Positions 3,851-37,372 of a stretch of 45,949 nt of DNA are shown piece by piece. Within the stretch, counting starts at the first letter, position 1, and each line of letters begins with the position of its first letter. Below the pieces are notes generated by a model that searched no databases, had not been told where the DNA came from, and saw only the letters and a list, made by a program, of their open reading frames with translations. Position numbers and translations under genes: made by a program. The DNA comes from Candidatus Eiseniibacteriota bacterium (lineage in GTDB: Bacteria > Eisenbacteria > RBG-16-71-46): positions 1 through 45,949 of the forward strand of contig JAHFBW010000003.1 in NCBI GenBank assembly GCA_023249845.1. The letters run 5' to 3'.

Positions 3851-3852
3851 GC

Positions 3853-8119: not shown

Positions 8120-8126
8120 CCCGCCG

Positions 8127-12930: not shown

Positions 12931-12943
12931 GGAGACAGGCCGC

Positions 12944-16570: not shown

Positions 16571-16580
16571 GCCGCGCCGC

Positions 16581-20190: not shown

Positions 20191-20192
20191 GC

Positions 20193-21017: not shown

Positions 21018-21024
21018 GGGATTG

Positions 21025-22035
21025 ATGCGCGTTCTCCATGCCCCGTCGGAGATCGCCGGGCAACCGAGCATCCTGGCGCGTGCGCTGCGCGAGCTCGGCG
21101 TCGAGGCGTGGTCGCTCGCGACCAATCCAACATTCGCGCAATACATGCCCGACGAGAGCCCGCCGCTCGACACGATGGCGCCGCTGCCACGCTACGCGGG
21201 CTACGCCGGTCTCGTCGTCAAGCACTTGCTGCGACACGACGTGTTCCACTTTCATTTCGGACGCACGCTGATCCCGCCACACAACCTGGACCTGCCGCTC
21301 TATCGCGCGCTCGGTAAGAAGCTCGTGTTCCACTACCATGGCTGCGACGTGCGCAACAAGGCGCACATGCGCGCCACGCACGCTTGGTCCACGTGCACGG
21401 AGTGCCAGCCATTCTGCATTCCGCGGCGGCAGGAGCGCATCCTGCGCGAGGCACGCCAATACGCGCATGCCGAGCTGGTGTCCACGCCCGACCTCTTGGA
21501 GAGCGTGCCCACGGCGCGGCAAGTGAACGTCGCGGCGTGGCTCCCGGACTACGTGCCGCGGCCGGTTCGAGAGTCGCCGCGGCTCGTGCTACACGCGCCC
21601 ACGAACCGGCTCATCAAGGGGACCCCGCACATCGAGGCGGTATTCGAACGGCTGCGCGCACGATTCCCCGGCGTCGAGTTCCGCACCGTCGAGAAGGTGC
21701 CCTTGCTCGAGCTTCGGGACATGCTCGCGCGGTGCGACGTGCTGGTGGACCAGATGTTCATGGGCTGGTACGGCATGGTCGCAGTGGAGGCAATGGCGTT
21801 CGCGCGTCCGGCGCTCGCGTACGTGCGGCCCGAGTTCGAGCCGCGCGCCGCCGGTTGCCCGGTCGTGCGCGTGAACGTCGAGACGCTCGAGAACGAGCTC
21901 GCCGCGTTGCTCGGGGACGCGCCCCGCCGCCGCGTGCTCGGCGAGGCCGGTCGCGTCTGGGTCGAGCGCGAGCACGACGCGAACGTCATCGCGCGCCGGC
22001 TCGTGGAGCTCTATCACGAGATCGGCGCCACGTGA
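21025..22035 (+). CDS. GT-B-like glycosyltransferase (divergent) with Cys/His cluster
   Basis: The C-terminal half looks GT-B (..LVLHAPTNRLIKGTPHIE.., ..WYGMVAVEAMAFARPALAYV..). The N-terminal half has HYHGCDVRNK..STCTECQPFC. No exact family was recognised. Confidence 0.55.
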   Translation: MRVLHAPSEIAGQPSILARALRELGVEAWSLATNPTFAQYMPDESPPLDTMAPLPRYAGYAGLVVKHLLRHDVFHFHFGRTLIPPHNLDLPLYRALGKKLVFHYHGCDVRNKAHMRATHAWSTCTECQPFCIPRRQERILREARQYAHAELVSTPDLLESVPTARQVNVAAWLPDYVPRPVRESPRLVLHAPTNRLIKGTPHIEAVFERLRARFPGVEFRTVEKVPLLELRDMLARCDVLVDQMFMGWYGMVAVEAMAFARPALAYVRPEFEPRAAGCPVVRVNVETLENELAALLGDAPRRRVLGEAGRVWVEREHDANVIARRLVELYHEIGAT

Positions 22036-23474
22036 GCGTTCGCGACTCGCTGCGGCGGCTCTCCAGCGAAGCGGTGATCTACGGCGTGGGCCAGGTGAGT
22101 GGCCGCGCGGTCAACCTGTTGCTCGTGCCTGTGCTCACGCGCGCGCTGCTCAAACAGCAGTACGGCGTCACGGAACTCGTGGCCGGCTACTCCGCGAGCG
22201 TGTTGCTGCTGCTCGTGTTCGGCATGGATGGCGCGCTGGCGCGGTTCTTCTACCAGCAGGAGGACCGGGCCGCGCGCGTGCGCATGACGTCGTCGTCGTT
22301 CGCGTTCCGGGTCGTGACGGGTTGCGCGGTGGCGCTCGTGCTCGCCACGGCCGCCCAGCCGCTCGCGCACGGCATGCTCGGGAGCGACGTCTACACCAAG
22401 TACCTGCGCCTGGGTGCCATCACGCTGCCGTTCACGCTCGTGACGCTGTGGTGCAACGACCTGCTCCGGGTCACGTTCCAGCCCTGGAAGTTCGTCGCCT
22501 TGAACGTGTCGCAGTTGACCCTCGTGGGCGGTCTCACGCTCACGTTCGTGCTCGGCCGCGGACTCGGGGTGGCCGGCGTGCTCTACGGCAAGCTCGTCGG
22601 CGACGCGCTCGCGGCCGTGTTCGGCCTCGTGCTGTGCCGGCACCACCTTCGCCCGCGCTTCGACGCCTCGATTCTACGACGCATGCTCGGCTATGGTCTG
22701 CCGCTCGTGCCGGTGGCGTTCGCCTATGGCGTCATCGGCGCCATGGATCGCTGGGCGCTCCAGCGGTTCGCGACGCTGGACGACGTCGGCACCTACGCGC
22801 TCGCGCTCAAGTTCTTCGCCGTGGTCACCATGGGCGTCTCGGCGTTCCAGCTCGCGTTCATGCCGATGGCGTTCGCGCGCGCACAGGATCCCGACGCGCC
22901 GCGCTTCTACGCGCGCGTGCTCGGGCTCTACGTGGCGGCGGCCACGGCGGGCGCGCTCGCGTGCGGGCTTGGGGCACCGCTCGCGATCCGGCTGCTCGCG
23001 ACGCGCGACTACGCCGATGCGGCACGCCCCGCGCTGTGGCTGGCCTTTGCCGCGGTCGCGCAGGGCGCCTACTATGTCTCCGCTCTGGGCATCAATCTCT
23101 CGCTCCGGAACGGCTGGCTCGCGGTCTCGACCGGCGGCGCAGCGCTCGTCGCGGCGATCGCCAACCTGGTGCTCGTTCCACGGCTCGGGGCCGAGGGCGC
23201 AGCCGCCGCCACGTTCGCGGCGTACACGTCGTCGGCGGTGCTCACCTACGCAATCGCGCAACGGCTCCATCCGCTGCCCTACCGGGGCGCGAGGCTCGCG
23301 GCGCTGTTCGCGATGGGCGTCCTGCTCGGGTTGGCTGTGGTGCGCGCGGCTCCGGCGGGGGCGTGGGGGTGGGGCTGGCGCCTCGCCACGCTCGTGGCAT
23401 TCTTGGCGCTGGCTTGGAAGAGCGACGTCTGGAAAGAGCGAGGCGCGATCCGGCACCGGCCGGCGGCGCCCTGA
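22032..23474 (+). CDS. Wzx-like oligosaccharide/polysaccharide flippase (MOP superfamily)
   Basis: About 480 aa and about 12-14 TM helices. N-terminus SEAVIYGVGQVSGRAVNLLLVPVLTRAL..YGV is typical of PST/Wzx proteins. GTGA overlap. Confidence 0.75.
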   Translation: MSVRDSLRRLSSEAVIYGVGQVSGRAVNLLLVPVLTRALLKQQYGVTELVAGYSASVLLLLVFGMDGALARFFYQQEDRAARVRMTSSSFAFRVVTGCAVALVLATAAQPLAHGMLGSDVYTKYLRLGAITLPFTLVTLWCNDLLRVTFQPWKFVALNVSQLTLVGGLTLTFVLGRGLGVAGVLYGKLVGDALAAVFGLVLCRHHLRPRFDASILRRMLGYGLPLVPVAFAYGVIGAMDRWALQRFATLDDVGTYALALKFFAVVTMGVSAFQLAFMPMAFARAQDPDAPRFYARVLGLYVAAATAGALACGLGAPLAIRLLATRDYADAARPALWLAFAAVAQGAYYVSALGINLSLRNGWLAVSTGGAALVAAIANLVLVPRLGAEGAAAATFAAYTSSAVLTYAIAQRLHPLPYRGARLAALFAMGVLLGLAVVRAAPAGAWGWGWRLATLVAFLALAWKSDVWKERGAIRHRPAAP

Positions 23475-23495
23475 ACCACACGAAAGGCGGCAGTC

Positions 23496-25571
23496 ATGTG
23501 CGGCATCGCCGGACTCTACGACCGATACGGGCGCGCGGATCTCGGCCGGGTGCAGGCCATGTCCCAACTGTTGCGCCATCGCGGCCCCGATGATGAGGGG
23601 CTGGTGCTGCTGGATCCCGTGAGCGGGCAGTGGAGCACGCACGGCGGCGCCGACACGCCGGCGGCCGTGTTCCGCTCCGGGTTGCCCTGGGCGCCGGCCC
23701 GCTCGCACGGGGCGCAGGCCATCGCGCGTCATGGGGTGGCCCTCGCGCATCGCCGTCTCGCGATCGTGGACCTGGAGCCCACGGGGCACCAGCCCTTGTG
23801 CGACTCCGCGCAGCGCGTGTGGATCGTCTACAACGGCGAGATCTACAACCACGTCGAACTGCGTGCCGAACTTGAGCACGCCGGGCACCGGTTCCTGGGC
23901 ACGAGCGACACCGAGGTGCTCGTGGCCGCGTATCGCACCTGGGGCGAGCGCTGCCTCGATCGCTTGAACGGCATGTTCGCATTCGCGCTGTGGGACGCCG
24001 ACCGCCAGCGATTGTTCTGCGCGCGCGACCGCTTCGGCGTCAAGCCGTTCTACTACCAGTACGACGGCAGCCGGTTCGCGTTCGCCTCCGAGGCCCGCGC
24101 CCTAGCCCTCACCCAAGCGTGGCGGCTGAAGCCCCAGCTCTCGGCCGTGCGCGACCTGCTGGCGCTCGACTGGGTGGACCACGAGTCGCAGACGTTCTTC
24201 GACGGACTGCGCCAGCTCCCGGCCGGACACTGGCTGTCCGTCGGCGAGGAGGGCTTCCGCGTCGAGCGCTGGTGGACGCTGTCTTCAGAAGGCCCGGCGA
24301 GCGGAAGCGCCGAGGACCACGCACACGAGTTCGCCGAGCTGTTCACCGATGCCGTTCGATTGCGCCTCCGCGCCGACGTTCAGGTGGGCTCCTGCCTCTC
24401 GGGCGGACTCGATTCGAGCGCCGTGGTGACCACTGCCGCCAGGCTCCAGAACGCGGGACTCCACGCGTTCACGTGCGCGTACGACGAGGGCCCGGCGTTC
24501 GATGAACGGCCCTACGTCCGAGCCGTGGCGCAGGCGAGTGGCGCCACGTCGCACGTCGTCGTGCCGGATGGGAGCGACCTGTGGACCGTCTTCGACGCGC
24601 TCGCGGACCTGCAGGGCGAACCCACGGCGGGGCCGGGAGTCTATTCGCAGTGGCAGGTCATGAAGCTTGCGCATGCGAATGGGCTCAAGGTTCTGCTCGA
24701 CGGCCAGGGCGGTGACGAGACGCTGGCCGGCTACTTCCGCTACCTGCCGACGCGACTGCGAGACCTCGCCGAAGCGGGCCAGTGGTCGAGACTCGCGACG
24801 CTGTTCGGACCCGTGTCGGATCGCCTCGGGCTCGGGACGACGCTGCTCCACACGTTCGAACCGTGGCTTCCGGAGGTACTCGTCTCAACGCTTCGCCGGC
24901 GCTTCGGCCAGGGCAAAGACCGCGTGCTCTCGAGCCGCCTCCGCCGCGAACCCTCGCAGGCGCCGCGCGCGGCGCGCGGCGCGCGCTCGGGACTTTGGGA
25001 CCAGCTCGCGTTCGACACGCTGGTGCGGCAGCTCCCGAGCCTGCTCCGCTACGAGGACCGGAGCAGCATGGCGTTCGCGATCGAGACACGGCTGCCCTTC
25101 CTCGACTATCGCCTCGTGGAGTTTGCGTTCTCGCTCCCCGACACTGAACGGCTGGACGGGATCACGACCAAGGCGATCGCGCGGCGGGCGCTGGGCGACC
25201 GGGTGCCCGCGAGCGTGCTCGAGCGCCGCGACAAGATGGGCTTCGAGACGCCGACCGACCTGTGGTTCCGCGGGCGTCACGCGGCCGAGGCGCGTCGCCG
25301 GCTCGCGCGCCCGGGCCCGTTCCAGGAATGGGTGGATCCGGCCCTTGTGCAGTCGTCGCTCGACGAGTATCTCGCCGGTCGCCGCGAGATCGGGCTCCAG
25401 ATCTGGCGCTGGATGTCGCTCGAGGCGTGGTCGCACCACTACCTCGCGCGCGACCCGCGCGTGCTCGGGCGCCCGGCGGATCCCGCTGTCTCTGCAGGGC
25501 GGCACTTGGGCTACAGCGACGCGATCGAGCATCACGAGTCGGAGCTCACGGCGGGCACCGCGGCCGGCTGA
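23496..25571 (+). CDS. Asparagine synthase (glutamine-hydrolysing)-family amidotransferase (AsnB/WbpS-like)
   Basis: N-terminal nucleophile MCGIAG, ..HRGPDDEG.., ..IVYNGEIYNH.. and the PP-loop SCLSGGLDSS. Its location inside a glycan cluster suggests sugar carboxylate amidation rather than Asn synthesis. Confidence 0.88.
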   Translation: MCGIAGLYDRYGRADLGRVQAMSQLLRHRGPDDEGLVLLDPVSGQWSTHGGADTPAAVFRSGLPWAPARSHGAQAIARHGVALAHRRLAIVDLEPTGHQPLCDSAQRVWIVYNGEIYNHVELRAELEHAGHRFLGTSDTEVLVAAYRTWGERCLDRLNGMFAFALWDADRQRLFCARDRFGVKPFYYQYDGSRFAFASEARALALTQAWRLKPQLSAVRDLLALDWVDHESQTFFDGLRQLPAGHWLSVGEEGFRVERWWTLSSEGPASGSAEDHAHEFAELFTDAVRLRLRADVQVGSCLSGGLDSSAVVTTAARLQNAGLHAFTCAYDEGPAFDERPYVRAVAQASGATSHVVVPDGSDLWTVFDALADLQGEPTAGPGVYSQWQVMKLAHANGLKVLLDGQGGDETLAGYFRYLPTRLRDLAEAGQWSRLATLFGPVSDRLGLGTTLLHTFEPWLPEVLVSTLRRRFGQGKDRVLSSRLRREPSQAPRAARGARSGLWDQLAFDTLVRQLPSLLRYEDRSSMAFAIETRLPFLDYRLVEFAFSLPDTERLDGITTKAIARRALGDRVPASVLERRDKMGFETPTDLWFRGRHAAEARRRLARPGPFQEWVDPALVQSSLDEYLAGRREIGLQIWRWMSLEAWSHHYLARDPRVLGRPADPAVSAGRHLGYSDAIEHHESELTAGTAAG

Positions 25572-25575
25572 CGCC

Positions 25576-26700
25576 TTGGACCTGCTCGTCCTCTCCGAGG
25601 TCCGCTGGGGATACTTCCGAACGCGGAAGCAGTTCCTGCTGTCGCGTTTCCCCGACCCGTGGCGCGTGTTCTTCGCTCAACCGCCCGCGCTGGGCGCGGA
25701 CGACCCGTGGCAGCCCAGGCGGGACGGGCGCGTGACCGTGTTCACGGTGCCGTTCCTGAAACCGGGCACGACGAGCGCGCTCTACAACGCCGTCGCCGCC
25801 ACCACGCCGGGCCGGGCCGCGATCGAGCTGGGCGCCGAGCTCTACTTGAGGCGAATGCTGGGCCGGCTGGGCGTGGACCCCGAACCGGTCGTCCTGGCCT
25901 CGAACATCTACGCGCCAGCGTTGCTTTCTCGGCTCCGCAAGAAGCTGTTACTCTACGACTTCAACGACCACCCCCTGCAGTTCTCGGCCACTCCGCCGTG
26001 GGCGAGTCCCTACCTGCGGCGCACGCTCTCGCAGGCGCAGGGGGTGTTCGTCGTTTCGGAGCACTACCGCCGGATGCTGGCCTCGGAGACCGACCGCCCC
26101 TTGATCCTGCTCGGGAACGGAGTGGAGATGGCTCACTTCGAGACGCCGCGCGTCCTGCCGGCCGACCTCGCGGTGCTGCCTGCGCCCCGCATCGGCTACG
26201 TGGGGCTGCTCTCGCATTTCCTCGACTTCGACGTGCTCGAGGCGCTGCGCCGGAACCGGCGCGGGGGCACGGTGGTATTGGTGGGGCCGGGCACGCCCGC
26301 GACCGACGCGGACGTGGCCGAGTTCGGCCGCCGCGAGGGCGTGGCGGTCCTGGGACCCAGATCCTACGCCGACGTGCCCGCGTACATGCAGGGTCTCGAT
26401 GTGGGCGTCATCCCGTTCAGGGCCGATGACCCGTACGTGAGGGGGATCAACCCGAACAAGATCTACCAATACCTGGCCGCCGGCATCCCCGTTCTCACCA
26501 CTCCGCTGCTCGACCTTTCGCCGAGTCCGCCCGACCTGCTGTACGCCTCCACCGCAGCCGAGTTCGTTCGCTCGCTCGAACAGGCGCTCGGGGCGGCCAG
26601 AGACGCCGCTCGTCGCCGTTCACTCGCGCGTCCCTACGACTGGGACGCGCTCGCCCGGCGCATGGTGGCCGAGATCGACTCGCGGCTGGCGATCGCGTGA
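25576..26700 (+). CDS. GT-B glycosyltransferase (GT4/TuaH-like)
   Basis: N-terminus LSEVRWGYFRTRKQFLLSRF resembles the TuaH-like GT1/4 subgroup. C-terminus ..IGYVGLLSHFLDFD.., ..GVIPF..INPNKIYQYLAAGIPVLTT. The start is taken as TTG 25576, the first in-frame start-like codon after the asnB-like stop, so it is uncertain. Confidence 0.65.
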   Translation: MDLLVLSEVRWGYFRTRKQFLLSRFPDPWRVFFAQPPALGADDPWQPRRDGRVTVFTVPFLKPGTTSALYNAVAATTPGRAAIELGAELYLRRMLGRLGVDPEPVVLASNIYAPALLSRLRKKLLLYDFNDHPLQFSATPPWASPYLRRTLSQAQGVFVVSEHYRRMLASETDRPLILLGNGVEMAHFETPRVLPADLAVLPAPRIGYVGLLSHFLDFDVLEALRRNRRGGTVVLVGPGTPATDADVAEFGRREGVAVLGPRSYADVPAYMQGLDVGVIPFRADDPYVRGINPNKIYQYLAAGIPVLTTPLLDLSPSPPDLLYASTAAEFVRSLEQALGAARDAARRRSLARPYDWDALARRMVAEIDSRLAIA

Positions 26701-26716
26701 ACCGAGGAGACTCCGC

Positions 26717-29158
26717 ATGAGCCAGAAGCCCGCCAGCAAGGGCAGGAGCCGGGGATTCACGCTCACGACCGCGTGGGCGGCGGTGGTCATCGCGCTGCTC
26801 ACCGTGGTGTTCTTCCACGAGGTGTCGCTCGAGGGACGCACGTTTCTCTCGCCCGACGCCACCGCGCCCGCGGGCTTCGTGCGTATGGGCGAGCAGTCGC
26901 TGTGGAAGGACAAGGTCTACCCGCTGTGGAACCCGTACGTGTTCCTCGGCATGCCGTCGTTCGGCTCGGGCGCCTACAACCCGCTCATCTACCCGCCCGA
27001 CTGGCCGGTGGCGCTCGTGCAGAAGCTGCTGCCGCTTCCGGATCTCACCTGGCTGCTCCTCTACTACTTCCTCGCCGGCCTGTTCGCGTTCCTGTTGGCG
27101 CGAGAATGGGGCGCGCGGCCGGAGGGCGCGCTGCTGGGCGCGGTGGCGTTCGTGTTCCAGCCGAACCTGGTCGCCGTGGGTGCGCACGGGCACGGCAGCC
27201 AGCTCGTGGACTCGGCCTACCTGCCGCTCATGTTGTGGCTCGCGACGCGCTGGCTCCGCCGCGGGACGCTCGCCGAACTCGGATGGCTGGCGCTCGCGGG
27301 CGGATTCCAGCTGCTGCGCGGACACGTGCAGATCTGCTTCTACACGTGGCTCGCGATCGGGTTCTACGTGCTCGTCGTGCTCGGCGCGTCGTTCCGGCGG
27401 CCGGGTGAGCTTGCCAGGCTCGCGCTGCGCGCCGCAGCGATCGCGGGCGCGGCGGCGCTGGCGTTCGGCGTCGCCGGCATCTACAACCTGCCGTTGCGCG
27501 ACTACGCCGCGCACTCCATCCGAGGCGCTGCGGCGGGTGGCGGCGTGGCGCTGGACTACGCGACGTCGTGGAGCATGGGGCTCTACGAGCTGCCGAGCAT
27601 CGTGTTCCCGAACTTCGTGGGGTTCGGGGGGCAAAGCTACTGGGGCGCGATGCCGTTCACGGACTACCCGAACGGCTATCTCGGCGTCATCGTGGTCCTG
27701 CTCGCGGCATGCGGCTTCGTGGGGCGGAGCGGCGCCGACGGCGCGGCCCGGTTGTTCGCAGGCGTGCTCACGCTGTTCGCGCTGCTCGTGGCGCTGGGCC
27801 GGCACTTCCCACTCTATGGTGTGCTCTACGAATACCTGCCGCTGTTCAACAAGTTCCGCATCCCGGTCATGGTGCTCGTCCTGTTCCAACTCGGCATGGC
27901 AATGGCGGCCGCGTGGGGCTGGGGAGCGCTCGTCGTGGTGAGCCGCGAGAAGGGCCGGCTCGACACGGTGGATCGCATCCTCGCAGGCGTGGCGATCGCG
28001 CTGGCGCTGCTCGGGCTGTTCGCGCTGTTCGGCACCGAGTCGTTCCGTGGCGGCTACGTCACGATGGCGCTCGAGCACCAGCCGCGACTCGGCGCGGACG
28101 CGGCGCGCGCCGCGTTCGCGGCGTTCACGGGCGACCTCGGCAAGGTTTCGTTCTTGGGGCTCGTCGTCGTGGGCGTCGCGTGGTTCGCGCGCCGTGGCAA
28201 ACTCCCGGTGGCGCTGGCGTCGGTGAGCGTCCTCGTGCTGCTCATGGTGGAATTGTGGCCGGTGAGCCGCTCGGTCATGCAACCCACGATCGGCGATCCC
28301 GTCGCTCGCGACATGGACACCGGGCGCGACGACGTCGTCGAGTTCCTGGAGAAGGCCGGGCCCGCGGGCTCGTTCCGCGTGTTCTTCCCCGAGTCCGAGC
28401 TGTTCCGGGACAACCGCGTCGCGGGCTTCGGCATCGCCACGCTGGGCGGCTATCACGCCGCGAAGCCCAAGCTGTTCCAGGACCTGGTGGACGGCAACGC
28501 GCTCACCCAGTTGCCGTGGCTGGCGCTCCTGAACGTGCGCTACTGCGTATTCTCGCGGCCGGTGGCGCCCACGGACATCCCGACGACGTTGTACCAGACG
28601 CTGCGCCTGGTGCACTCCGGACCGGGCGGCGCAGTCTACGAATACGCGCTCGCCCTGCCGCGCGCCATGCTCGTGGGTTCGTGGGAAGTGGTGCCCGATA
28701 CCGGACGCAGCGTGCTGGATTCCGTGAGCGCAGTGGTGCGGAACCCCGCCGTGTTCACCTGGCTCACGTCGGATCCCGGCATCGCATCGGGCCCCGCGGA
28801 CTCCGTGGGCTCCGCCACGATCACGCGCTATCGGCTGCACGAGGTGGACATCGACGTGGACGCCTCGCGCCCCGTCCTGCTGCGACTCGCCGATCTGTGG
28901 TACCCGGATTGGAAGGTCACGGTGGACGGCAAGCCCGCGAGACTCCTGCGCGCCGACCACGCGCTGCGCGCGGTCGTCGTGCCCGCCGGCCGTCACCAGG
29001 TCGTGTTCAAGTTCGAGTCCGGGGCATTCACGATGGGACTGTGGCTCTCGATCGGCAGCTCACTCCTGGCACTGCTGCTGCTCGCCGCGGGATGGTGGTG
29101 GTCTCGCCGCCCGCCCGCCATGGTGGAACCGCCAGCCGAGGAGGGAGCGCGGGCCTGA
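26717..29158 (+). CDS. YfhO-family polytopic membrane protein (GT-C-like glycosyltransferase)
   Basis: 814 aa. The N-terminal half is polytopic, with YPLWNPYVFLGMPSFGSGAYNPLIYPPDW and ..GHGSQLVDSAYLPLMLW.. The C-terminal roughly 250 aa is extracytoplasmic with a final TM helix, which is the YfhO architecture. GAGGAG lies upstream of ATG 26717. Confidence 0.7.
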   Translation: MSQKPASKGRSRGFTLTTAWAAVVIALLTVVFFHEVSLEGRTFLSPDATAPAGFVRMGEQSLWKDKVYPLWNPYVFLGMPSFGSGAYNPLIYPPDWPVALVQKLLPLPDLTWLLLYYFLAGLFAFLLAREWGARPEGALLGAVAFVFQPNLVAVGAHGHGSQLVDSAYLPLMLWLATRWLRRGTLAELGWLALAGGFQLLRGHVQICFYTWLAIGFYVLVVLGASFRRPGELARLALRAAAIAGAAALAFGVAGIYNLPLRDYAAHSIRGAAAGGGVALDYATSWSMGLYELPSIVFPNFVGFGGQSYWGAMPFTDYPNGYLGVIVVLLAACGFVGRSGADGAARLFAGVLTLFALLVALGRHFPLYGVLYEYLPLFNKFRIPVMVLVLFQLGMAMAAAWGWGALVVVSREKGRLDTVDRILAGVAIALALLGLFALFGTESFRGGYVTMALEHQPRLGADAARAAFAAFTGDLGKVSFLGLVVVGVAWFARRGKLPVALASVSVLVLLMVELWPVSRSVMQPTIGDPVARDMDTGRDDVVEFLEKAGPAGSFRVFFPESELFRDNRVAGFGIATLGGYHAAKPKLFQDLVDGNALTQLPWLALLNVRYCVFSRPVAPTDIPTTLYQTLRLVHSGPGGAVYEYALALPRAMLVGSWEVVPDTGRSVLDSVSAVVRNPAVFTWLTSDPGIASGPADSVGSATITRYRLHEVDIDVDASRPVLLRLADLWYPDWKVTVDGKPARLLRADHALRAVVVPAGRHQVVFKFESGAFTMGLWLSIGSSLLALLLLAAGWWWSRRPPAMVEPPAEEGARA

Positions 29159-29874
29159 TGGAGAAGCTCGTCATCATCCCCACCTACAACGAGCGCGAGA
29201 ACATCGATCCTCTGATCGAAAGCCTGCTCGCGCTCCCGTACGGGCTCGAGGTGCTGGTGGTGGACGACGGCTCGCCAGACGGCACGGCGGCGAGCGTGAA
29301 GGCGTGGACAGCGCGCGACCCGCGTGTCCACCTGCTCGAGCGGCCGGGCAAGCTGGGGCTCGGCTCGGCCTACCGCGACGGCTTCCGTTACGCGCTCGCG
29401 AACGGTGTCGAATACGTGTTCGAGATGGACGCGGATTTCTCGCATGACCCGGTCGCGATCGGTGACTTCCTCGAGGCCGCGAAGGACGCGGACATCGTGC
29501 TGGGCTCGCGCTACCTGCATGGCGTTACCGTTGTGAACTGGCCACTCTCGCGCCTCATCCTGTCGTTCTCGGCGAATCTCTACTCGCGCATCGTCACCGG
29601 TATGCCGGTGGCCGACGCCACGGGCGGGTTCAAGTGCTTCCGTCGCCGGGCGCTCGAAGGTATCCGCCTGGACCGGGTGAAGACCGAGGGCTACGGCTTC
29701 CAGATCGAGATGACGTTCCGCTGTTGGAAGCGCGGCTTCCGCATCAAGGAGATCCCGATCGTGTTCGTGGACCGTCGCGCGGGGATCTCCAAGATGAACC
29801 GGCGGATCATCCTCGAGGCCGCGGGCCTGGTGTGGAAGTTGCGGTTGCTCGACCTCCTGGGGCGTCTCGAATGA
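29158..29874 (+). CDS. Polyprenol-monophosphomannose synthase (Ppm1/DPM1-like GT2)
   Basis: LVIIPTYNERENI, VVDDGSPDGT, LGLGSAYRDGF, EMDADFSHDP and DATGGFKCFRR are nearly diagnostic DPM1/Ppm1 blocks. It has no TM segment. The ATG shares 1 nt with the YfhO stop. Confidence 0.85.
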   Translation: MEKLVIIPTYNERENIDPLIESLLALPYGLEVLVVDDGSPDGTAASVKAWTARDPRVHLLERPGKLGLGSAYRDGFRYALANGVEYVFEMDADFSHDPVAIGDFLEAAKDADIVLGSRYLHGVTVVNWPLSRLILSFSANLYSRIVTGMPVADATGGFKCFRRRALEGIRLDRVKTEGYGFQIEMTFRCWKRGFRIKEIPIVFVDRRAGISKMNRRIILEAAGLVWKLRLLDLLGRLE

Positions 29875-32168
29875 TCCGCATGAGATGGGTGAAAGCCGCG
29901 CTCGTCGCGGCAGCGCTGCTCGCCGCGCCCGTGGCGCGCGCGGAAGGACTGTGGTCCACGTACCTGCACGCCAGCTCCTGCAACGACATCCTGGCGCTGC
30001 GGGACACCGTGTGGATGGCGACCGGCGACGCCGGGCTCCTGCGCTACCACCGTTCGACCGACTCGTGGAGCACGATCACGCGTGAGCCGGACGGGCTCGC
30101 GGGTAACGACGTTCAGGCGATCACGTTCGACCGCTCGGGGAACCTGTTCGCCGCCGTACCGGGCAAGGGCGTGAGCCGGCTGGACACCGATGGTCATTGG
30201 TCACTGATCAACGCGTTCGACGGCCTGCCCTCGGATACCGTGCTCGTGCTCCACGCCGATGGCGATACGGTGTGGATCGGCACCACGCGCGGCCTGGCGC
30301 TGTGGGACGGCAAGACCGTTGCGGGCTCGGTGCCGGACCTCGGCACCCCGTCGCCGTTCTCGAACAACAACATCAACGGCCTCGCCGTGACAGGCGACAC
30401 GCTGGTCGTGAGCACGCCGGAGGGGATCTACGTCGCGCGAATTTCGCAGCGCCTCGCGACGTGGAATCTCATCAACGGAACGTTGCCGCTACTGAACCAG
30501 GATATCCGGGGCATCGCGAGCGACGGGCGAGTGCTCCTCGCGCTCGTGAAAGGTAACCCCATCAGCAATCCCACAGGGGTCATCTTCACCAGCTTCCGCT
30601 GGTCGCCATCCACGAATTCGTGGCCGACCGAAACCCCGGGGTCCGGTTTGGGGCAATCGGTTCGAAGGCTGCGGGACGACCACGGCATCATCGTCGCGAC
30701 GACGCTGGCTGGAACCCACCTGCGCACCGCGAGCGGAGTGTGGATCCAGAGCCCGAATTCGCCGGCAACGGACAACGGCGACGTCGCGGCGCTCGAGCCC
30801 GCGGCGGATCCGGACGGAGTGTTGTTCACGTCCACGGCAGGCAAGCTTGCGCAGGAACCGTCCTGGACCGCGCTCGCGCCGCCCGGTCCCGTGGGCAACA
30901 CGTCGCGCAACGTCGCGTGGGTGAACGGCACGGTGTACGTGTGTTACGCGGGCGAGGGCATCGGGCGGTTGCGCGACGGCGTCTGGCGCAACTACCCGGC
31001 GAGTGGGACCAACTGCGTGGGGGCCGAGTGCGACACGACGTTCACGAATTCGGTCTTCCCCGCCGGCATGCTTGTGGATCCGCTCGGGTCCCGCTGGATC
31101 GCGATGTGGGGCGGTCCGCTCACGCGGTTCTCGGACGAGACCTCGCCGCCCGTGTTCCAGAACATCTTCTACGCGAGCAGCAATGCGGACAGCGCCCACC
31201 TCCATTCGACTATCCACGCCGCTGCCGCGGACTCCACGAATGGGACGCAGGCCGGTCGCTGGTTCGGCCTCGACTCCGACCGCATCGGCAATGACATCGG
31301 CAATCCGCTGGGACTCGACCTCTACGACCAGGACGGCCGTTTCATTCGCAACTACGACACAACCTATCCCGGTCTCAGGAACGGCCTCATCCGTGCGCTC
31401 GTGTGCGACCGCTCCAACAAGATGTGGGTGGGCTACAAGGGCAGCTCGAGCGCCGGGCTGTCCACATTCCAGGTGCCAGAGAACCTGCAGGTCGGAATCG
31501 AGCTCACGGACGTGCTGTCCACGAACCGGCTCGACGTGTTCGGCCTCGCCACCGTCGGGGATTCCGTGTGGGTGCTGGCCACGGACGGCCTCTACCGCTA
31601 CCGCCAGAGCACGGCCGCGTTCGTCTCTAAGCTGGAGATCGCCGGCCCGCCCGCGCTCGCGAGCATGCATCCCCTCGCCGTGGCGCCCAACGGCACCGTG
31701 TTCGTGGGTACGACAGGCGGAATGCGCGTGCATCGCCGTGGCCGCCTGCCGATGGACTACACGCCCGACAACTCGCCGATCGCCGACGTCGAAGTGCGCG
31801 GCTTGTACTGCGAGCCCTCGGGTGCGGTGTGGATCGCGACGGCGAGCGGGGTCAATCGGTTCGATCCGGAGTACATCCCACCACCCGAGCCGAAGTTGCC
31901 GTCGCTCACCGTCAAGCTCTACCCGAATCCGGCATGGCTCACCGGCGCCGGATTCGAGCTCCGTCTCGCGGGCCAGGCCACCTCCTACGTCGGCGAGGTC
32001 TTCGACTTGAACGGCCGGGTCGTGCACCGCTTCAGCATCGGAGGCAACGGGAGCGTATTCTGGGGCGGACGCAACCTGGACCAGCAATGGGTCGGCCCCG
32101 GAGTCTATTTCGTTCGCGTCCGGGGCGGCGGGGCCGAGGCGACGTCGCGCGTCGTCGTGCTGCGCTAG
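29871..32168 (+). CDS. Secreted beta-propeller (two-component-regulator-propeller-like repeats) protein with T9SS/FlgD-Ig-type C-terminal sorting domain
   Basis: Signal peptide MIRMRWVKAALVAAALLAAPVARA/EG. There are many repeats of the type ..V(W/L)xxTxxGLxxY/W.. (VWMATGDAGLLRY, VWIGTTRGLALWDG, VWVLATDGLYRY, VWIATASGVNRFD). The last roughly 85 aa are KLYPNPAW..VFDLNGRVVHRF..WGGRNLDQQWVGPGVYFVRVRGGG..SRVVVLR. ATGA overlap with the Ppm1-like gene. Confidence 0.75.
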   Translation: MIRMRWVKAALVAAALLAAPVARAEGLWSTYLHASSCNDILALRDTVWMATGDAGLLRYHRSTDSWSTITREPDGLAGNDVQAITFDRSGNLFAAVPGKGVSRLDTDGHWSLINAFDGLPSDTVLVLHADGDTVWIGTTRGLALWDGKTVAGSVPDLGTPSPFSNNNINGLAVTGDTLVVSTPEGIYVARISQRLATWNLINGTLPLLNQDIRGIASDGRVLLALVKGNPISNPTGVIFTSFRWSPSTNSWPTETPGSGLGQSVRRLRDDHGIIVATTLAGTHLRTASGVWIQSPNSPATDNGDVAALEPAADPDGVLFTSTAGKLAQEPSWTALAPPGPVGNTSRNVAWVNGTVYVCYAGEGIGRLRDGVWRNYPASGTNCVGAECDTTFTNSVFPAGMLVDPLGSRWIAMWGGPLTRFSDETSPPVFQNIFYASSNADSAHLHSTIHAAAADSTNGTQAGRWFGLDSDRIGNDIGNPLGLDLYDQDGRFIRNYDTTYPGLRNGLIRALVCDRSNKMWVGYKGSSSAGLSTFQVPENLQVGIELTDVLSTNRLDVFGLATVGDSVWVLATDGLYRYRQSTAAFVSKLEIAGPPALASMHPLAVAPNGTVFVGTTGGMRVHRRGRLPMDYTPDNSPIADVEVRGLYCEPSGAVWIATASGVNRFDPEYIPPPEPKLPSLTVKLYPNPAWLTGAGFELRLAGQATSYVGEVFDLNGRVVHRFSIGGNGSVFWGGRNLDQQWVGPGVYFVRVRGGGAEATSRVVVLR

Positions 32169-32243
32169 CGTGTCCCGAACGCCGGCGGGGGGCCCTCGCA
32201 GGCCGCGAGCCCGAGCCGTGTCCACGAGGAGCGACCCGCGAGG

Positions 32244-33284
32244 GTGCTGCCGTTGACCGAATCCACCACCCGGGTCTTGACCACCGTGCCCGAGGGCTGG
32301 GGCGCGTTGCTCGACGCGGATCCCTCCGCGTCCCCGTCACACCGGCCCGAGCTCTGGGAAGCGATGGCCGCCGCGGTGCCAGCCTTCGAATGGCGCGTGC
32401 TCGAGCTGCGGGACGGAGGCCTCGCGGGCGGGGCTCCGCTCGTGATCTCGCGGCGCGGGCCGTTCCGCTGGCTCCACGCGCTGCCGTGGCTCCTGCCCGC
32501 GCCCCCGCTCGCTCGCGCGGGCCAGCACGCGCGTGCGGACGACGCGCTGTGCGCAGCGTTCGCGGACCTCGCGGCCGTGGAGCGCGCGGTGGGAGGGGAG
32601 TGGTCGTTCTACCGTCCGGAAGGTCCCGACCCAGCCGCGAGCGCGCTCTCGTTGGTTCCGGGGGAGACGCGTCGGTTCGCGGCCGCCATCTTGCCGCTCG
32701 CCGCGGGGATCGATTCCGTTCGATCGGGTGTACACCGGAAGCAGCGCCAGGCGCTCGACCAAGCGATCGCACAACCGTTCATGTTCGCGGAGGAAGCTTC
32801 TGCGCTGGAGGAGGCGCAGGCACTGCACCTCGCCCAGTCGCGGCACTGGCCCGGTCATCGGCCGGTGCCGCTCGAACTCTGCCATCGGCTGCTGCGCGCG
32901 GGGCCCGCGGAGGCGCGCGTCGGGAGGCTGTTCACGCTGCGTTCGCGCCACGATCTCGTCTCGGCGACGTTCGCGCTCGACGGCCCGCACGAGACGTTCG
33001 TGTGGTGGAGCGGCACCCGCCCCGAGGGCCGGCGTGCGAACGCGTTCCTCCGCCTGCTGTGGGGAGTGGCGGAATGGGCCGCCGCACGCGGCCGGCGGCG
33101 ATTGAACCTGGGCGCGAGCGGCGGGCTCTCGCAGGTGGGGGCGTTCAAGTCGGCGCTGGGAGCGACGCTCGTGGACTATCCCGTGCGCTGGCTCGACGCG
33201 CGACATGCTTCGCTTGCGGGCCGCGGACTCGCGCTGGTACAGGCGTTCCGACGGCGCGGCCGAGCGCGCGGCGAGGCCACGTGA
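32244..33284 (+). CDS. FemAB/CelD-like GNAT-fold acyl(aminoacyl)transferase
   Basis: The C-terminal block ..FVWWSGTRPEGRRANAFLRLLWGVAEWAAARGRRRLNLGASGGLSQVGAFKSALGATLVDYP resembles FemAB / Acetyltransf_6 family proteins. GTG start after a 75-nt gap. The call is by eye. Confidence 0.6.
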   Translation: MLPLTESTTRVLTTVPEGWGALLDADPSASPSHRPELWEAMAAAVPAFEWRVLELRDGGLAGGAPLVISRRGPFRWLHALPWLLPAPPLARAGQHARADDALCAAFADLAAVERAVGGEWSFYRPEGPDPAASALSLVPGETRRFAAAILPLAAGIDSVRSGVHRKQRQALDQAIAQPFMFAEEASALEEAQALHLAQSRHWPGHRPVPLELCHRLLRAGPAEARVGRLFTLRSRHDLVSATFALDGPHETFVWWSGTRPEGRRANAFLRLLWGVAEWAAARGRRRLNLGASGGLSQVGAFKSALGATLVDYPVRWLDARHASLAGRGLALVQAFRRRGRARGEAT

Positions 33285-34357
33285 GAATCGCGACGCTCGC
33301 GAACGCCTCCGTCGTGCATACGCGGCGCTGGGTGGAGCACTTCCGATCACGCGGACACGAGGTCCGCCTGTTCTCGCTGGAGGAGCCGCCCGCTGGATTC
33401 GCGACGACGGCGCTGCCGTGGGTTCCGCTGCCCGGTGTGATCCGCTACCCGCTCGCGGTCCCCGCGCTCAAGCGCGAACTTCGTGCGTTCGCGCCCGACC
33501 TCGTGGATGCGCACTACGTGCCGAACTACGGCGTCATGGCGGCGCTCGCAGGGCGGCGCCCCTATTCGATCACGGCGTGGGGCAGCGACCTGCTGCTCGC
33601 GGCCGGCCGCGACCCGTGGCAACGCATGCGCGCGCGGTTCGCGCTCGAAGGCGCCGCTCTCGTGCTGTGTGACGCCGAGAACCTCGCCGCGGCCGCCCGC
33701 CGCGCCGGCGCGCCGGCCGAGCGCGTGCGTGCGATCCCCTGGGGTGTGGACCGCGAGCTCTACCGTCCCGGCGGCACACGCGAGCGCGGGCTCATCCTGT
33801 CTGCGCGCATGCACGAGAGTGTCTACGACTTGCCCACCGTGATCGAGGGTGCTGCGCGGGTGCTCGAGACTCTGCCGCACGCGCATGTCGTGTTCGCGGG
33901 AGATGGAATGCTGCGGCCCGAGCTCGAGCGCCGCGCGGCGGCGCGGCTCCCGGCCGGGCGCTACCGATTCGTGGGCCGGGTCGGCGCGGCCGAGCTGGCG
34001 TCCTGGCTCTCGCGAGCCGAAGTCTACGTGTCCGCGTCGCGCTCCGATTCCACGTCGCAATCCCTGCTCGAGGCCATGGCCGCTGGGGCGGTCCCGGTGG
34101 TGAGCGATATCGAGGGGAATCGCGAGTGGGTGCGCCCGGGCGAGAGCGCGCGGCTCTTCCCGGTGGGCGACGCCCCGGTACTGGCGCGCGAGCTGCGTGT
34201 GGTACTCGAGGATCCGGCCTGGGCAGCGTCCGCGCGAGACGCCGCGGCGCGGGTGATCGCCGCGCGCGGGGACTGGCGCGTGAACCTCGCGCGCATCGAG
34301 CGCTGTTTCGAGGCGGTGGTGGCCAGGCGGCCGCTGCCCGAGGAGCCGCCTCTGTGA
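33281..34357 (+). CDS. Glycosyltransferase family 4 (GT-B)
   Basis: IATLANASVVHTRRWVEHFRSRGHEV (GT4 N-domain). C-terminus ..VYVSASRSDSTSQSLLEAMAAGAVPVVSDIEGNREWVRPGESARLF. GTGA overlap. Confidence 0.8.
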   Translation: MRIATLANASVVHTRRWVEHFRSRGHEVRLFSLEEPPAGFATTALPWVPLPGVIRYPLAVPALKRELRAFAPDLVDAHYVPNYGVMAALAGRRPYSITAWGSDLLLAAGRDPWQRMRARFALEGAALVLCDAENLAAAARRAGAPAERVRAIPWGVDRELYRPGGTRERGLILSARMHESVYDLPTVIEGAARVLETLPHAHVVFAGDGMLRPELERRAAARLPAGRYRFVGRVGAAELASWLSRAEVYVSASRSDSTSQSLLEAMAAGAVPVVSDIEGNREWVRPGESARLFPVGDAPVLARELRVVLEDPAWAASARDAAARVIAARGDWRVNLARIERCFEAVVARRPLPEEPPL

Positions 34358-35631
34358 GGCGCGTGCTCGTGCTCACGCCGTTCTTCCCGCCGCTCGCGGG
34401 GGGAGGGGTTCACCGCGTGCTCTCGTTCGTGCGCCACCTGCCGGCGCGCGGCTGGGCATGTACCGTCGTGTGCGCGGGCGAGCACGACTACTGGGTGCGC
34501 GACGAATCACTGCTCAAGCAGGTGCCACCCGCGACCGAGGTGCTGCGCGTCGCGGGCGGCAGCGCGCTCGCGGCGTGGTTGCGCGTGCGCGGGAAGGCGG
34601 ACTCGGGCCGGCGCTCGGGAGGCGCGTTCGCACCGCTTCGTTCACTCGCGGATTGGTGGCTGCTGCCGGATTCCTACGCCGGCTGGTCGCGACGCGCGCG
34701 CAGTGTGGCAGCGGCGCGCGCATCGCGCGGCGACGTTCACGCCGTGCTCTCGAGCTCGCCGCCCGACAGCGCCCACCTCGCCGCGCTCGACGTGACGCGT
34801 ACCGCCCGGCTGCCGTGGGTGGCGGACTTTCGTGATCCCTGGGTGGGGCTCCACTTCCGCAAGCCCCCGACGCCGTGGCACGCGGCGCGACATGCCGCGA
34901 TGGAGGCGAGCGTCACGGGTAGCGCAGACCTGGTGCTCACTGCGTCCCGGACGCACGAACGTGAGCTTGCATCACGCGCGGTCGGCAAGCCACGACGGCT
35001 GTTGCACCTGCCGAACGGCTTCGAACCCTCCACGAGCACGACCCAGGTCGTGGACCGATCGCGGTTCCGGCTGGCGTTCACGGGCACGCTCTCGCTCATG
35101 GACGACATGGGTACGCTGCTCGATGCGCTCGAGCGCCTGCAAGGCATCGAACCGCGAGCGCGCGACGCGCTGCGCGTGGAGCTGGTGGGGCCGTACGATT
35201 CCGATTGGGAGGCGCGCACGAACGCGCGCGGCCTCGGAAGTCTCGTGCGCTTCAGCGGACCGCGGTCGCACGCGGAGACGCGCGCGCTCCAGCGTTCGGC
35301 GGACGCGCTGCTGCTGTGGAAACCCCGCGGGGACGGCTATCGCACCATGGTGCCCGGCAAACTCTACGAGTATCTGGACAGCGAGCGGCCGATCCTGGCG
35401 CTGCTTCCCGAGCATGATGAGGCCGCGGAGCTGGTGACACAAGCGGGCGGGAGCGTGCTTCCGCCGGGAGACGCCGAAGCGCTGGCGGTCGAGCTCGCCG
35501 CGCGTCTCGCGCGCTGGCGCGAGGCGGGACGACTTCCGGATGCCCGGCCGGCGTGGCTCGGTGAGTACGCGCGCGAGCGTCTCGCCGGCGAGCTCGCACG
35601 CGCGCTCGACTCGCTCGTGGAACGGGCATGA
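34354..35631 (+). CDS. GT-B glycosyltransferase (GT4-like)
   Basis: VLVLTPFFPPLAGGGVHRVLSFVRHL (N-domain). ..FTGTLS.., ..MVPGKLYEYLDSERPILAL.. (C-domain). GTGA overlap. Confidence 0.7.
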   Translation: MRRVLVLTPFFPPLAGGGVHRVLSFVRHLPARGWACTVVCAGEHDYWVRDESLLKQVPPATEVLRVAGGSALAAWLRVRGKADSGRRSGGAFAPLRSLADWWLLPDSYAGWSRRARSVAAARASRGDVHAVLSSSPPDSAHLAALDVTRTARLPWVADFRDPWVGLHFRKPPTPWHAARHAAMEASVTGSADLVLTASRTHERELASRAVGKPRRLLHLPNGFEPSTSTTQVVDRSRFRLAFTGTLSLMDDMGTLLDALERLQGIEPRARDALRVELVGPYDSDWEARTNARGLGSLVRFSGPRSHAETRALQRSADALLLWKPRGDGYRTMVPGKLYEYLDSERPILALLPEHDEAAELVTQAGGSVLPPGDAEALAVELAARLARWREAGRLPDARPAWLGEYARERLAGELARALDSLVERA

Positions 35632-37205: not shown

Positions 37206-37270
37206 GCGGCGATGGGCCGACTGCACGCCCGTGCAGTCAGGAAACGTCGGACTCGCCGCTTTTTTCTTTT
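37206..37270 (+). terminator. Rho-independent terminator ending the glycan gene array
   Basis: GCGGCGA (37206-37212) pairs with TCGCCGC (37253-37259). Inner pairing options are CCGAC/GTCGG, or the perfect hairpin GACTGCAC-gccc-GTGCAGTC. TTTTTTCTTTT follows at 37260-37270. Confidence 0.6.
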
Positions 37271-37298
37271 GACTCAGGCGAAGCGCAGAGCCTATCTT
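37269..37298 (+). promoter_or_regulatory. Putative sigma70-type dcw/mraZ promoter (TTGACT - 18 nt - TATCTT)
   Basis: TTGACT at 37269-37274 and TATCTT at 37293-37298, in the only AT-richer patch of the region. The -35 element overlaps the terminator T-tract. Confidence 0.5.
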
Positions 37299-37306
37299 GC
37301 GCGGCT

Positions 37307-37366
37307 GTGGGGAGCGGTGGGGAGCCGTGGTAAGTCTTGGGGAGCAGTGGTTCCCCGTGGAGCGCT
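37307..37366 (+). promoter_or_regulatory. Six direct (G/T)TGG boxes at exact 10-bp phasing: candidate MraZ operator
   Basis: The 10-mers starting at 37307, 37317, 37327, 37337, 37347 and 37357 read GTGGGGAGCG, GTGGGGAGCC, GTGGTAAGTC, TTGGGGAGCA, GTGGTTCCCC and GTGGAGCGCT. They lie between the predicted -10 element and the mraZ ATG. E. coli MraZ binds GTGGG-type direct repeats with the same 10-bp periodicity. Confidence 0.65.
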
Positions 37367-37372
37367 CACGCG

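Follow-up and report, generated by a model that had tools for sequence, protein, structure and literature searches.

The attachment of type IX secretion system (T9SS) cargo to the cell surface has been worked out in detail only in Porphyromonas and Tannerella. In these bacteria the genes for PorZ, for the sortase and for making the linking sugar are scattered and were discovered one by one through genetics; in Porphyromonas gingivalis, porZ presumably lies apart from vimA. The subject of this work is a 45,949-nt stretch of DNA (contig JAHFBW010000003.1, referred to as the window) from an uncultured soil bacterium, Candidatus Eisenbacteria of the FCB (Fibrobacteres, Chlorobi, Bacteroidetes) superphylum, in which a gene for a PorZ-like protein (g10) stands inside an operon of glycan-synthesis genes.

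PorZ (PG1604) of P. gingivalis is that protein of the T9SS attachment complex that binds anionic lipopolysaccharide (A-LPS) at the surface and passes it on to PorU, the sortase (PMC8545088). It has 776 aa, comprises two seven-bladed propellers and an 85-residue C-terminal domain (CTD), and resembles BT4663; the propellers of such sensors of hybrid two-component systems (HTCS) bind sugars (PMC5121618). After secretion, PorZ keeps its CTD, and it is anchored by way of PorQ (PMC8545088, PMC5121618). In the model of A-LPS, the O-polysaccharide is capped by one pentasaccharide that ends in a seryl-uronamide linking sugar, and eleven genes are specific to A-LPS (PMC13086638). Veith et al. argued that VimA, which matches the TIGR03019 family, attaches serine or glycine to the 2-amine of this sugar, and they described pairs of FemAB and AsnB genes in exosortase loci, which they suggested to make an amino-acid-modified sugar for sorted proteins (PMC7468200). 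The PorZ and A-LPS papers cited here make no mention of porZ adjoining glycan genes.

Results of our analysis indicate that g10 is a divergent member of the PorZ family. With moderate confidence, we favor the reading that a conserved envelope glycan is the product of the operon and that the PorZ-like protein binds this glycan and offers it for the attachment of T9SS cargo. The suggestion that the operon makes the anchor comes from the position of the PorZ-like gene among sugar-building enzymes in numerous species and in a second phylum.

Relationship of the propeller protein to PorZ

The gene and the regions of its product are as follows.

29871..32168, + strand: PorZ-like protein (g10), 765 aa, with signal peptide, two beta-propellers and T9SS C-terminal domain
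29871..29942, + strand: signal peptide, residues 1-24 (...PVARA/EG), read from the translation; low-pLDDT helix 5-16 in the model
29943..31880, + strand: double beta-propeller region, residues 25-670, from model strands and Reg_prop repeats; matches HTCS sensor propellers and PorZ
31917..32165, + strand: T9SS type A CTD, residues 683-765, seven-strand beta-sandwich, from TIGR04183 and the model

While the original prediction labeled this protein a T9SS cargo, its fold, its NCBIfam matches and the existence of sequence intermediates identify it as a PorZ-family protein and not as a generic cargo. The AlphaFold2 (AF2) model of g10 (pLDDT 90.1, pTM 0.80) contains 54 propeller strands of at least three residues, consistent with 14 four-stranded blades arranged in two seven-bladed propellers, and a seven-strand sandwich at residues 681-764. 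The top match of this model in a Foldseek search of the PDB was PorZ (5M11; E 9.1e-28), with TM-scores of 0.59/0.60 over the entire three-domain chain, while the next matches by E-value, the sensor domains of Bacteroides HTCS, reached TM-scores of only 0.31-0.36, because their domain arrangement differs. The only NCBIfam families matched by g10 were PorZ (NF052228, E 4.7e-14) and TIGR04183. An alignment of 40 g10 homologues (A1), used as a profile, matched PorZ 5M11 with E 8.7e-23, colinearly across the last blades and the CTD. When the single g10 sequence was compared with PDB sequences, only HTCS sensors and no PorZ were found at E<=1, and thus the link to PorZ needed the profile, the fold and the intermediates.

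When 1.84 billion representative proteins were searched with a profile for relatives of g10, the Eisenbacteria-type orthologues came first, followed by full-length relatives of ~700-770 aa matched in a single stretch; 160-odd PorZ-like orthologues are present in the databases. The search also matched other CTD-bearing proteins, with no lineage assigned to them. For all ten distant full-length relatives that were checked, PorZ was the top NCBIfam family (64-231 bits). Two of them, P0367 (231 bits) and P0344 (179 bits), span the entire 757-position model, the other eight scored 114, 101, 97, 84, 81, 81, 70 and 64 bits, and P0367 also matched 5M11 directly (E 2e-17, residues 283-742). Since none of the ten reaches the PorZ cutoff of 260 bits, g10 is to be regarded as a divergent member of the PorZ family, supported by the model, the profile and the intermediates, and not as an NCBI-grade equivalog. 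The two proteins share the arrangement of signal peptide, two propellers and seven-strand CTD and are of similar size (765 aa in g10 vs. 776 aa in PorZ), but they are only 16% identical, and the host of g10 is a member of Candidatus Eisenbacteria, not of Bacteroidota.

The sequence motifs on which the recognition of the CTD had originally been based (KLYPNPAW, GVYFVRV and VVVLR) are all present in the translation of 29871-32168, and MIRMRWVKAALVAAALLAAPVARA/EG at its N-terminus looks like a signal peptide, as had been claimed. The proposed translational coupling to the preceding gene through ATGA holds in part: the overlap at 29871-29874 is real, but the relatives have gaps of 5-79 nt at this place, so it is not conserved. 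An alternative start codon of g10 is the ATG at 29880. The CTD passed one of three curated CTD models, TIGR04183 (35 bits, cutoff 23), which upholds the assignment of this domain by that model, while the Pfam models Por_Secre_tail and FlgD_ig stayed below their cutoff of 27 bits. The CTD is the best conserved domain of the PorZ-like family (0.69 vs. 0.59-0.63), which suits a functional CTD that stays on the protein, as described for PorZ, better than a signal that is cleaved off. The passing of a CTD model, the conservation of this domain, the finding of other CTD proteins and the homology of g10 to a dedicated T9SS component are indirect arguments for a T9SS in these bacteria.

Organization of the operon and its conservation in Eisenbacteria-type loci

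Because the window has ~70% G+C, its genes were called from the third-position GC, with the use of a GC3 frame plot and inspection of start codons. The + strand carries every gene from ~2741 to the window end. Apart from g10, the part of the operon from 22032 to 37205 consists of the following genes, in which GT denotes a glycosyltransferase family or, for GT-C, a fold class.

22032..23474, + strand: Wzx-type flippase, 480 aa (Pfam Polysacc_synt_3 56.6 bits, Polysacc_synt 43.4 bits)
23496..25571, + strand: AsnB-type glutamine-dependent amidotransferase (g6), 691 aa (Asn_synthase 250 bits and GATase_7 165 bits; TIGR01536 430 bits, cutoff 267)
25576..26700, + strand: GT4-type glycosyltransferase, TuaH-like, 374 aa (Glyco_trans_1_4 35 bits; NCBIfam TuaH 83 bits, below cutoff)
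26717..29158, + strand: YfhO-like polytopic membrane protein (g8), 813 aa (Pfam YfhO 28.1 bits, cutoff 28.5, C-terminal 50 residues only; weak PgfM1, 19.6 bits, and PgfM2)
29158..29874, + strand: GT2, polyprenyl-phosphate sugar synthase-like (g9), 238 aa (Glycos_transf_2 115 bits; best NCBIfam AglJ, PpgS and dolichyl-phosphate hexose transferase, all below cutoff)
32244..33284, + strand: FemAB-like tandem-GNAT transferase (g11), 346 aa (Pfam Acetyltransf_6 45.2 bits; predicted fold)
33281..34357, + strand: GT4 glycosyltransferase, "GT4a", 358 aa (Glyco_trans_1_4 77 bits, Glycos_transf_1 74 bits, Glyco_transf_4 64 bits)
34354..35631, + strand: GT4-like glycosyltransferase, "GT4b", 425 aa (weak Glyco_transf_4, 23 bits)
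35628..37205, + strand: 525-aa polytopic membrane protein, GT-C-like (AftB-like) (phmmer vs. AftB 9dlf E 4.3e-4, residues 12-274; NCBIfam beta-arabinofuranosyltransferase 38 bits, below cutoff)

Judging from its sequence, the YfhO-like protein is a probable GT-C glycosyltransferase acting outside the cytoplasm. The clustering of the propeller-CTD gene with Wzx, AsnB, FemAB-like and GT4 genes, which had been noticed in the original prediction, was confirmed by Pfam and NCBIfam, and the genes form one + strand operon, separated mostly by overlaps of 1-4 bases or gaps of <25 bases. The limits given for the cluster, 22032-34357, include just one of the two GT4 genes that were named, the first, and the glycan block is much larger (~7343-37205). 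A scan of the region 21000-37500 for promoters and terminators gave results at chance level with no internal signal, the sole promoter-like site being located before mraZ.

A scan of one genome per species yielded 27 loci (L004-L030) with a clear g10 relative, one of which duplicates an earlier contig; together with three earlier loci, they make up 28 distinct Eisenbacteria-type loci and one duplicate record. One of the 28 is a complete 3.62-Mb chromosome (OY970178.1), and the named g10 relatives come from Candidatus Eisenbacteria. To the end of each contig, the 28 loci share the gene order methyltransferase-GT1-like-Wzx-AsnB-GT4-YfhO-like-GT2-PorZ-like-FemAB-like-GT4-GT4-GT-C-mraZ, which begins at the methyltransferase gene at 20187 of the window and is continued after mraZ by a STAS gene, rsmH, ftsL and a gene for a penicillin-binding protein. 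The least conserved member of this set is the PorZ-like protein (34-74% identity vs. ~45-90% for most of its neighbors), which would suit an exposed protein. Among the neighbors, the TuaH-like GT4 is 63-86% and the GT2 71-90% identical in Eisenbacteria loci. The YfhO-like gene is paired with the following GT2 gene in every locus inspected, the AsnB gene is syntenic in every locus that extends to its position, and the position of Wzx is kept in the Eisenbacteria loci as well as in L085, L087 and L089. Locus L087, from another Eisenbacteria metagenome-assembled genome (MAG), has the order Wzx-AsnB-GT4-YfhO-GT2-GT2-PorZlike-FemAB-GT4... upstream of mraZ; the arrangement of L089 and L090 is similar, and that of L088 is PorZlike-GT4-mraZ. 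No sign of a second PorZ-like paralogue was found within ±10 kb of each PorZ-like gene in the loci inspected. P0379, considered as a paralogue within Eisenbacteria, was rejected, as it belongs to the same cluster and occupies the same position upstream of mraZ.

Three loci of this set (L013, L018 and L027) are labeled Methylomirabilota, Verrucomicrobiia and Acidiferrales, respectively. Their genes follow the Eisenbacteria order, and their PorZ-like proteins are 54%, 54% and 40-41% identical; they are probably mis-binned Eisenbacteria contigs. A separate peculiarity is P0318 (MDI6807394.1), a 1387-aa "glycosyltransferase" of a Candidatus Eisenbacteria MAG, which consists of GT2, Bac_transf and a complete PorZ-like protein. 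At the junction, its PorZ-like part retains a signal-peptide-like segment (RRRIVPLSIIPLLFLFSQKSEA); either a stop codon was lost or this is a real fusion of an initiating transferase with a PorZ-like protein.

Linkage outside Eisenbacteria

In the Latescibacteria MAG L032 the gene order is Bac_transf-PorZlike-PglF-like-FemAB-GT4b-GTC, where Bac_transf stands for an initiating sugar transferase and PglF-like for a 4,6-dehydratase; the PorZ-like gene is split there into two open reading frames, with the CTD present. Homologues of GT4b adjoin the PorZ-like genes in L032 (38%) and L083 (32%), homologues of the AftB-like GT-C occur in L032 and L082, and a homologue of GT4a, 40-45% identical, is found 3' of the PorZ-like genes in L082 and L083. 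An unassigned metagenome contig, L085, carries the L032-type core with Wzx-AsnB-GT4-YfhO-GT2 upstream, and L086 begins like L085. In L083, which carries the 231-bit P0367, the PorZ gene is followed by homologues of GT4a and GT4b, 40% and 32% identical, and no FemAB-like gene was detected near it. In L084, which carries the 179-bit PorZ relative, a FemAB-like gene overlaps the PorZ-like one, and no glycan genes come after it save for one weak, sub-cutoff GT-like match two genes on. Outside the core Eisenbacteria set, a FemAB-like gene lies no more than two genes downstream of the PorZ-like gene in seven of the nine informative contexts, so the PorZ-like/FemAB-like pair is a conserved core. The linkage of PorZ-like and glycan genes is still seen where the PorZ-like proteins are just 22-24% identical.

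The locking of a PorZ-family gene to an operon of FemAB-like, AsnB-like and glycosyltransferase genes in Eisenbacteria-type loci and in a Latescibacteria MAG constitutes independent comparative evidence, and this linkage argues that the function of PorZ and an aminoacylated anchor glycan belong together and that T9SS cargo anchoring probably operates outside Bacteroidota. The original prediction described the lineage of the window as very different from those of the known T9SS bacteria; Candidatus Eisenbacteria, as a member of the FCB superphylum, is not so distant from Bacteroidota.

The surroundings of P0367, the relative most like PorZ, in L083 (1-6580) include genes for a GT4, for an initiating transferase in which Glycos_transf_4 and Bac_transf are fused, for seryl-tRNA synthetase and for a protein that has a C5-epimerase domain and a T9SS CTD at its end. 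Among these, serS is worth noting because the known linking sugar carries serine, but its position may be a coincidence.

FemAB-like and AsnB-like enzymes

The predicted structure of the FemAB-like protein g11 (AF2, pLDDT 92.7) was most similar in the Foldseek search to Sba18/Sbb17 and FemX (E 7e-17 to 1e-13, TM-scores of 0.64-0.79, identity of 9-17%), and further matches comprised FemA and, after it, MprF with its aminoacyl-phosphatidylglycerol synthase domain (E to 1e-9). The likeness of g11 to Sba18/Sbb17 and FemX/FemA consists in the common tandem-GNAT fold. The PDB entries of Sba18/Sbb17 describe aminoacyl-tRNA-dependent peptide synthases complexed with streptothrisamine. These enzymes aminoacylate an amino sugar; a reaction of this type is proposed for VimA and g11.

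By sequence, a homologue search with g11 returned close Eisenbacteria orthologues only (at least 53% identity) and opened no route to VimA, and a search of PDB sequences gave nothing meaningful. Still, g11 is homologous from end to end to the FemAB-like protein of L032 (E 9e-15), and six of seven positional orthologues checked matched TIGR03019 over the full length with 37-80 bits (79.9 bits for the L032 protein), scores that are below the equivalog cutoff. Taking the fold model and these relatives together, g11 is a candidate for an aminoacyl-tRNA-dependent aminoacyl transferase and for an analogue of VimA.

TIGR03108, the family of the XrtA/PEP-CTERM amidotransferase, is the top match of the asparagine synthases that adjoin vimA-related genes (PMC7468200). 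The AsnB-type protein of the window, g6, reaches 391 bits on this model, below its cutoff of 817.

Proposed function of the operon

From the genes observed, the folds and family ties of their products and the conservation of their linkage we infer the biochemical steps of the scheme given here, the surface location of its components and its link to cargo anchoring. The cytoplasmic GT4 and GT2 enzymes would build a lipid-linked oligosaccharide, in which the FemAB-like enzyme would transfer an amino acid from aminoacyl-tRNA onto an amino sugar, leaving a free amine, and the AsnB-type enzyme would amidate a carboxyl group. The unit would then be flipped by Wzx. The small GT2 may produce a polyprenyl-phosphate sugar, to be used by the YfhO-like and AftB-like GT-C proteins for extracytoplasmic decoration of the glycan. 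Exported by the T9SS through its CTD, the PorZ-like protein would remain on the surface, bind the glycan and pass it to a PorU-type sortase, which would join it to the C-termini of CTD-bearing cargo.

The idea of the original prediction that the locus is tied to a glycan anchoring T9SS cargo is supported by the PorZ-family gene, its linkage across loci and the aminoacyl-transferase fold of the FemAB-like protein, but not in the part that specified a Wbp/Vim-type sugar. As the organisms are uncultured, the value of this scheme is that of a testable hypothesis and not of a demonstrated mechanism. The operon provides a list of candidate enzymes of anchor-glycan synthesis, including GT-C proteins that have no counterpart in the known pathway. 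More tentatively, T9SS attachment in Eisenbacteria, Latescibacteria and related FCB lineages may be tied genetically to the making of the anchor glycan that it uses, with a PorZ-family protein and a VimA-like enzyme as the core, and this arrangement is possibly ancestral to the scattered por, vim and wbp genes of Bacteroidota. The anchor may not be a lipopolysaccharide, because the operon always abuts the dcw cell-wall operon.

Remaining genes of the window

The other features of the window, assigned with Pfam and NCBIfam or by synteny, surround the operon as follows.

2741-6621, + strand: riboflavin operon and nusB
~7343-37205, + strand: glycan-synthesis gene block (Pfam/NCBIfam)
7343..22035, + strand: upstream part of the glycan block (Pfam and NCBIfam), with genes overlapping or closely spaced
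3' of the glycan block, + strand: mraZ, then the dcw cell-division operon, assigned via synteny with annotated relatives

The upstream part of the glycan block encodes methyltransferases, GT4s, a flippase-like protein, a TMEM260-like GT-C with tetratricopeptide repeats (TPR), an epimerase, an ArnC-like GT2, HddC/HddA-like proteins, a 513-aa membrane protein, a GT2 and a GT1-like protein; its final three genes are syntenic in relatives. Within it, the region 9242-14856 looks like an ArnT-style module, composed of a flippase-like LPG_synthase_TM protein, an 898-aa TMEM260-like GT-C of the protein O-mannosyltransferase type with TPR repeats at the C-terminus, an NAD-dependent epimerase/dehydratase and a GT2 resembling ArnC (194 bits on that model, which is under the cutoff), and could serve extracytoplasmic glycosylation of proteins or lipids. 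The adjacent genes at 14853-16570, for an HddC-like nucleotidyltransferase and an HddA-like kinase (284 bits, cutoff 600), suggest by their sequence similarities that the cluster is fed by GDP-glycero-manno-heptose or a related activated sugar. The 513-aa membrane protein (17741-19282) has no Pfam family and matches weakly the putative glycosyltransferase LA_3751/LA_3752 (21 bits); it could be the polymerase or ligase missing from the cluster. That the 513-aa and 525-aa membrane proteins are paralogues was rejected, as they are unrelated to one another.

At the head of the dcw operon, between mraZ and rsmH, lies a gene for a STAS-domain, anti-sigma-antagonist-like protein (window 37822-38280). 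It is kept in all Eisenbacteria-type loci that extend to its position, and the same gene was found in L001 (17877-18335), L002 (17810-18262), L087 (21340-21687), L088 (4294-4614) and L090 (6113-6649). Its location at the head of the dcw operon seems unusual.

At its other end, the window carries a truncated minus-strand gene (3-2288) that runs off the window start and encodes a secreted protein with a signal peptide (MRRSLALLLAGSSLAAAVTALS). The product has YVTN beta-propeller repeats, two CxxCH heme-binding motifs and no Pfam match. It was considered as a second CTD cargo and dropped, being a YVTN propeller with CxxCH motifs and a C-terminus outside the window.

Alternative explanations

Several observations weigh against the reading in which the operon supplies a glycan for cargo attachment. 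The score of g10 on the NCBIfam PorZ model is 51.8 bits vs. a cutoff of 260 and comes from residues 630-750 only, and by sequence the A1 profile scores the HTCS Reg_prop sensors higher than PorZ (129 vs. 83.5 bits), because of the repeated Reg_prop motifs. The last 89 aa of g10 reach 23.5 bits on Por_Secre_tail (PF18962) and 19.4 bits on FlgD_ig (PF13860), both below 27, and the full protein reaches 18.2 bits on the former. On TIGR03019, g11 itself scores 13.7 bits. The sugar genes proposed in the original prediction did not materialize: none of the genes scanned (2741-37205) encodes WbpA/B/D/E, that is, a UDP-sugar dehydrogenase, an oxidoreductase/aminotransferase pair or an acetyltransferase, although such genes could be located elsewhere in the genome, no VimE-type CE4 deacetylase is present in the cluster or the related loci inspected, and the window contains no initiating phosphoglycosyltransferase (WbaP-type), recognizable Wzy or WaaL. 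A linking sugar of the Wbp/Vim uronamide type therefore cannot be claimed. The four GT-C-like proteins and two ArnC/Ppm-like GT2s suit a general system of envelope-polymer synthesis or protein glycosylation equally, and a literature search found no paper linking Eisenbacteria with the T9SS. The literature on the T9SS in Latescibacteria, Gemmatimonadetes and Fibrobacteres likewise yielded nothing usable.

The main rival reading is that the cluster makes a general envelope polysaccharide or glycolipid, O-antigen-like, capsule-like or wall-associated, and that the propeller protein is a surface glycan-binding factor for its assembly or retention, with no role in cargo attachment. The size of the cluster (~7343-37205), its generic polysaccharide genes, its GT-C-like proteins and GDP-heptose genes, its constant position beside the dcw cell-wall operon and the lack in the window of the Wbp/VimE enzymes of the known linking sugar all agree with this, and sugar binding on propeller faces is common to HTCS sensors. 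We nevertheless consider it rather unlikely. The closest structural and family relative of the propeller protein is PorZ, the published role of which is the delivery of A-LPS to the sortase (PMC8545088), and the partner most tightly conserved with it is a FemAB-like enzyme, of TIGR03019/VimA type, and not a polymerase or export gene; in L084, this pair occurs with no other clear glycan genes. The same partnership bears on a second rival, which takes up the alternative of the original prediction that the locus glycosylates the propeller protein itself: as an ordinary cargo of the T9SS, e.g., a surface lectin, this protein would be O-glycosylated by the neighboring GT2 and GT-C. The pairs of GT2 and YfhO include the Pgf machinery of protein glycosylation, to which g8 and g9 show weak matches (PgfM and PgfS), a TMEM260-like GT-C of the protein O-mannosyltransferase type with TPR is encoded upstream, and the T9SS CTD passes TIGR04183. 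The partner that is left when the others are gone is, however, a cytoplasmic FemAB-like enzyme and not a GT-C, the propeller gene is a single-copy positional orthologue across the phylum with a graded link to PorZ, and the CTD is its most conserved part, as expected of a domain that is retained and not cleaved. This makes the glycosylated-cargo proposal improbable.

The propeller protein could also be thought of as an HTCS-type sugar sensor, located in the periplasm or otherwise outside the cytoplasm, by which the glycan operon is regulated. Among PDB sequences, it is matched most strongly by the sensor domains of BT4663, BT3049 and BT4673, with which it shares Reg_prop double seven-bladed propellers, and some of its relatives are named "ligand-binding sensor domain-containing protein" by JGI. 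Unlike the HTCS sensors, g10 lacks the Y_Y_Y domain, membrane anchor and kinase and has a T9SS CTD in their place: no Y_Y_Y domain, transmembrane helix, histidine kinase or receiver was found 3' of its propellers, and the protein ends in the CTD at residue 765. With a global TM-score of 0.31-0.36 to the sensors vs. 0.6 to PorZ, the sensor role is largely refuted, being essentially excluded by the domain architecture.

Comparison with known systems

The anchoring reading set out above can be placed beside described systems. Similarly to the Wbp/Vim pathway of A-LPS, the Eisenbacteria operon combines a FemAB-type enzyme, an AsnB-type amidotransferase, GT4s and Wzx, although these are generic classes, and by enzyme class three or four of the eleven A-LPS-specific genes are represented in it. 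In contrast, its YfhO-like and AftB-like GT-C proteins and Ppm-like GT2 are all outside the eleven-gene list of P. gingivalis. Because of these additional enzymes and of the lack of Wbp, VimE and WbaP in the window, the glycan, if it is an anchor, is probably chemically different from the A-LPS linking sugar.

The pair formed by g9 and g8 has its parallel in CsbB/YfhO, a GT2-YfhO pair of extracytoplasmic glycosylation. As in that pair and in PgfS/PgfM1 of Streptococcus mutans, a small GT2 of polyprenyl-phosphate type adjoins a large YfhO-like membrane protein, although the matches are weak.

With the exopolysaccharide loci of the PEP-CTERM/exosortase system, the Eisenbacteria locus shares a pair of FemAB-family and AsnB-type genes accompanied by glycosyltransferases in a locus tied to protein sorting. 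It differs from them in having no exosortase or PEP-CTERM protein, the sorting component being the T9SS PorZ-like protein instead. Our results support Veith et al., who suggested that the pairing of FemAB and AsnB in loci for protein sorting produces sugars that bear an amino acid and serve as attachment points (PMC7468200).

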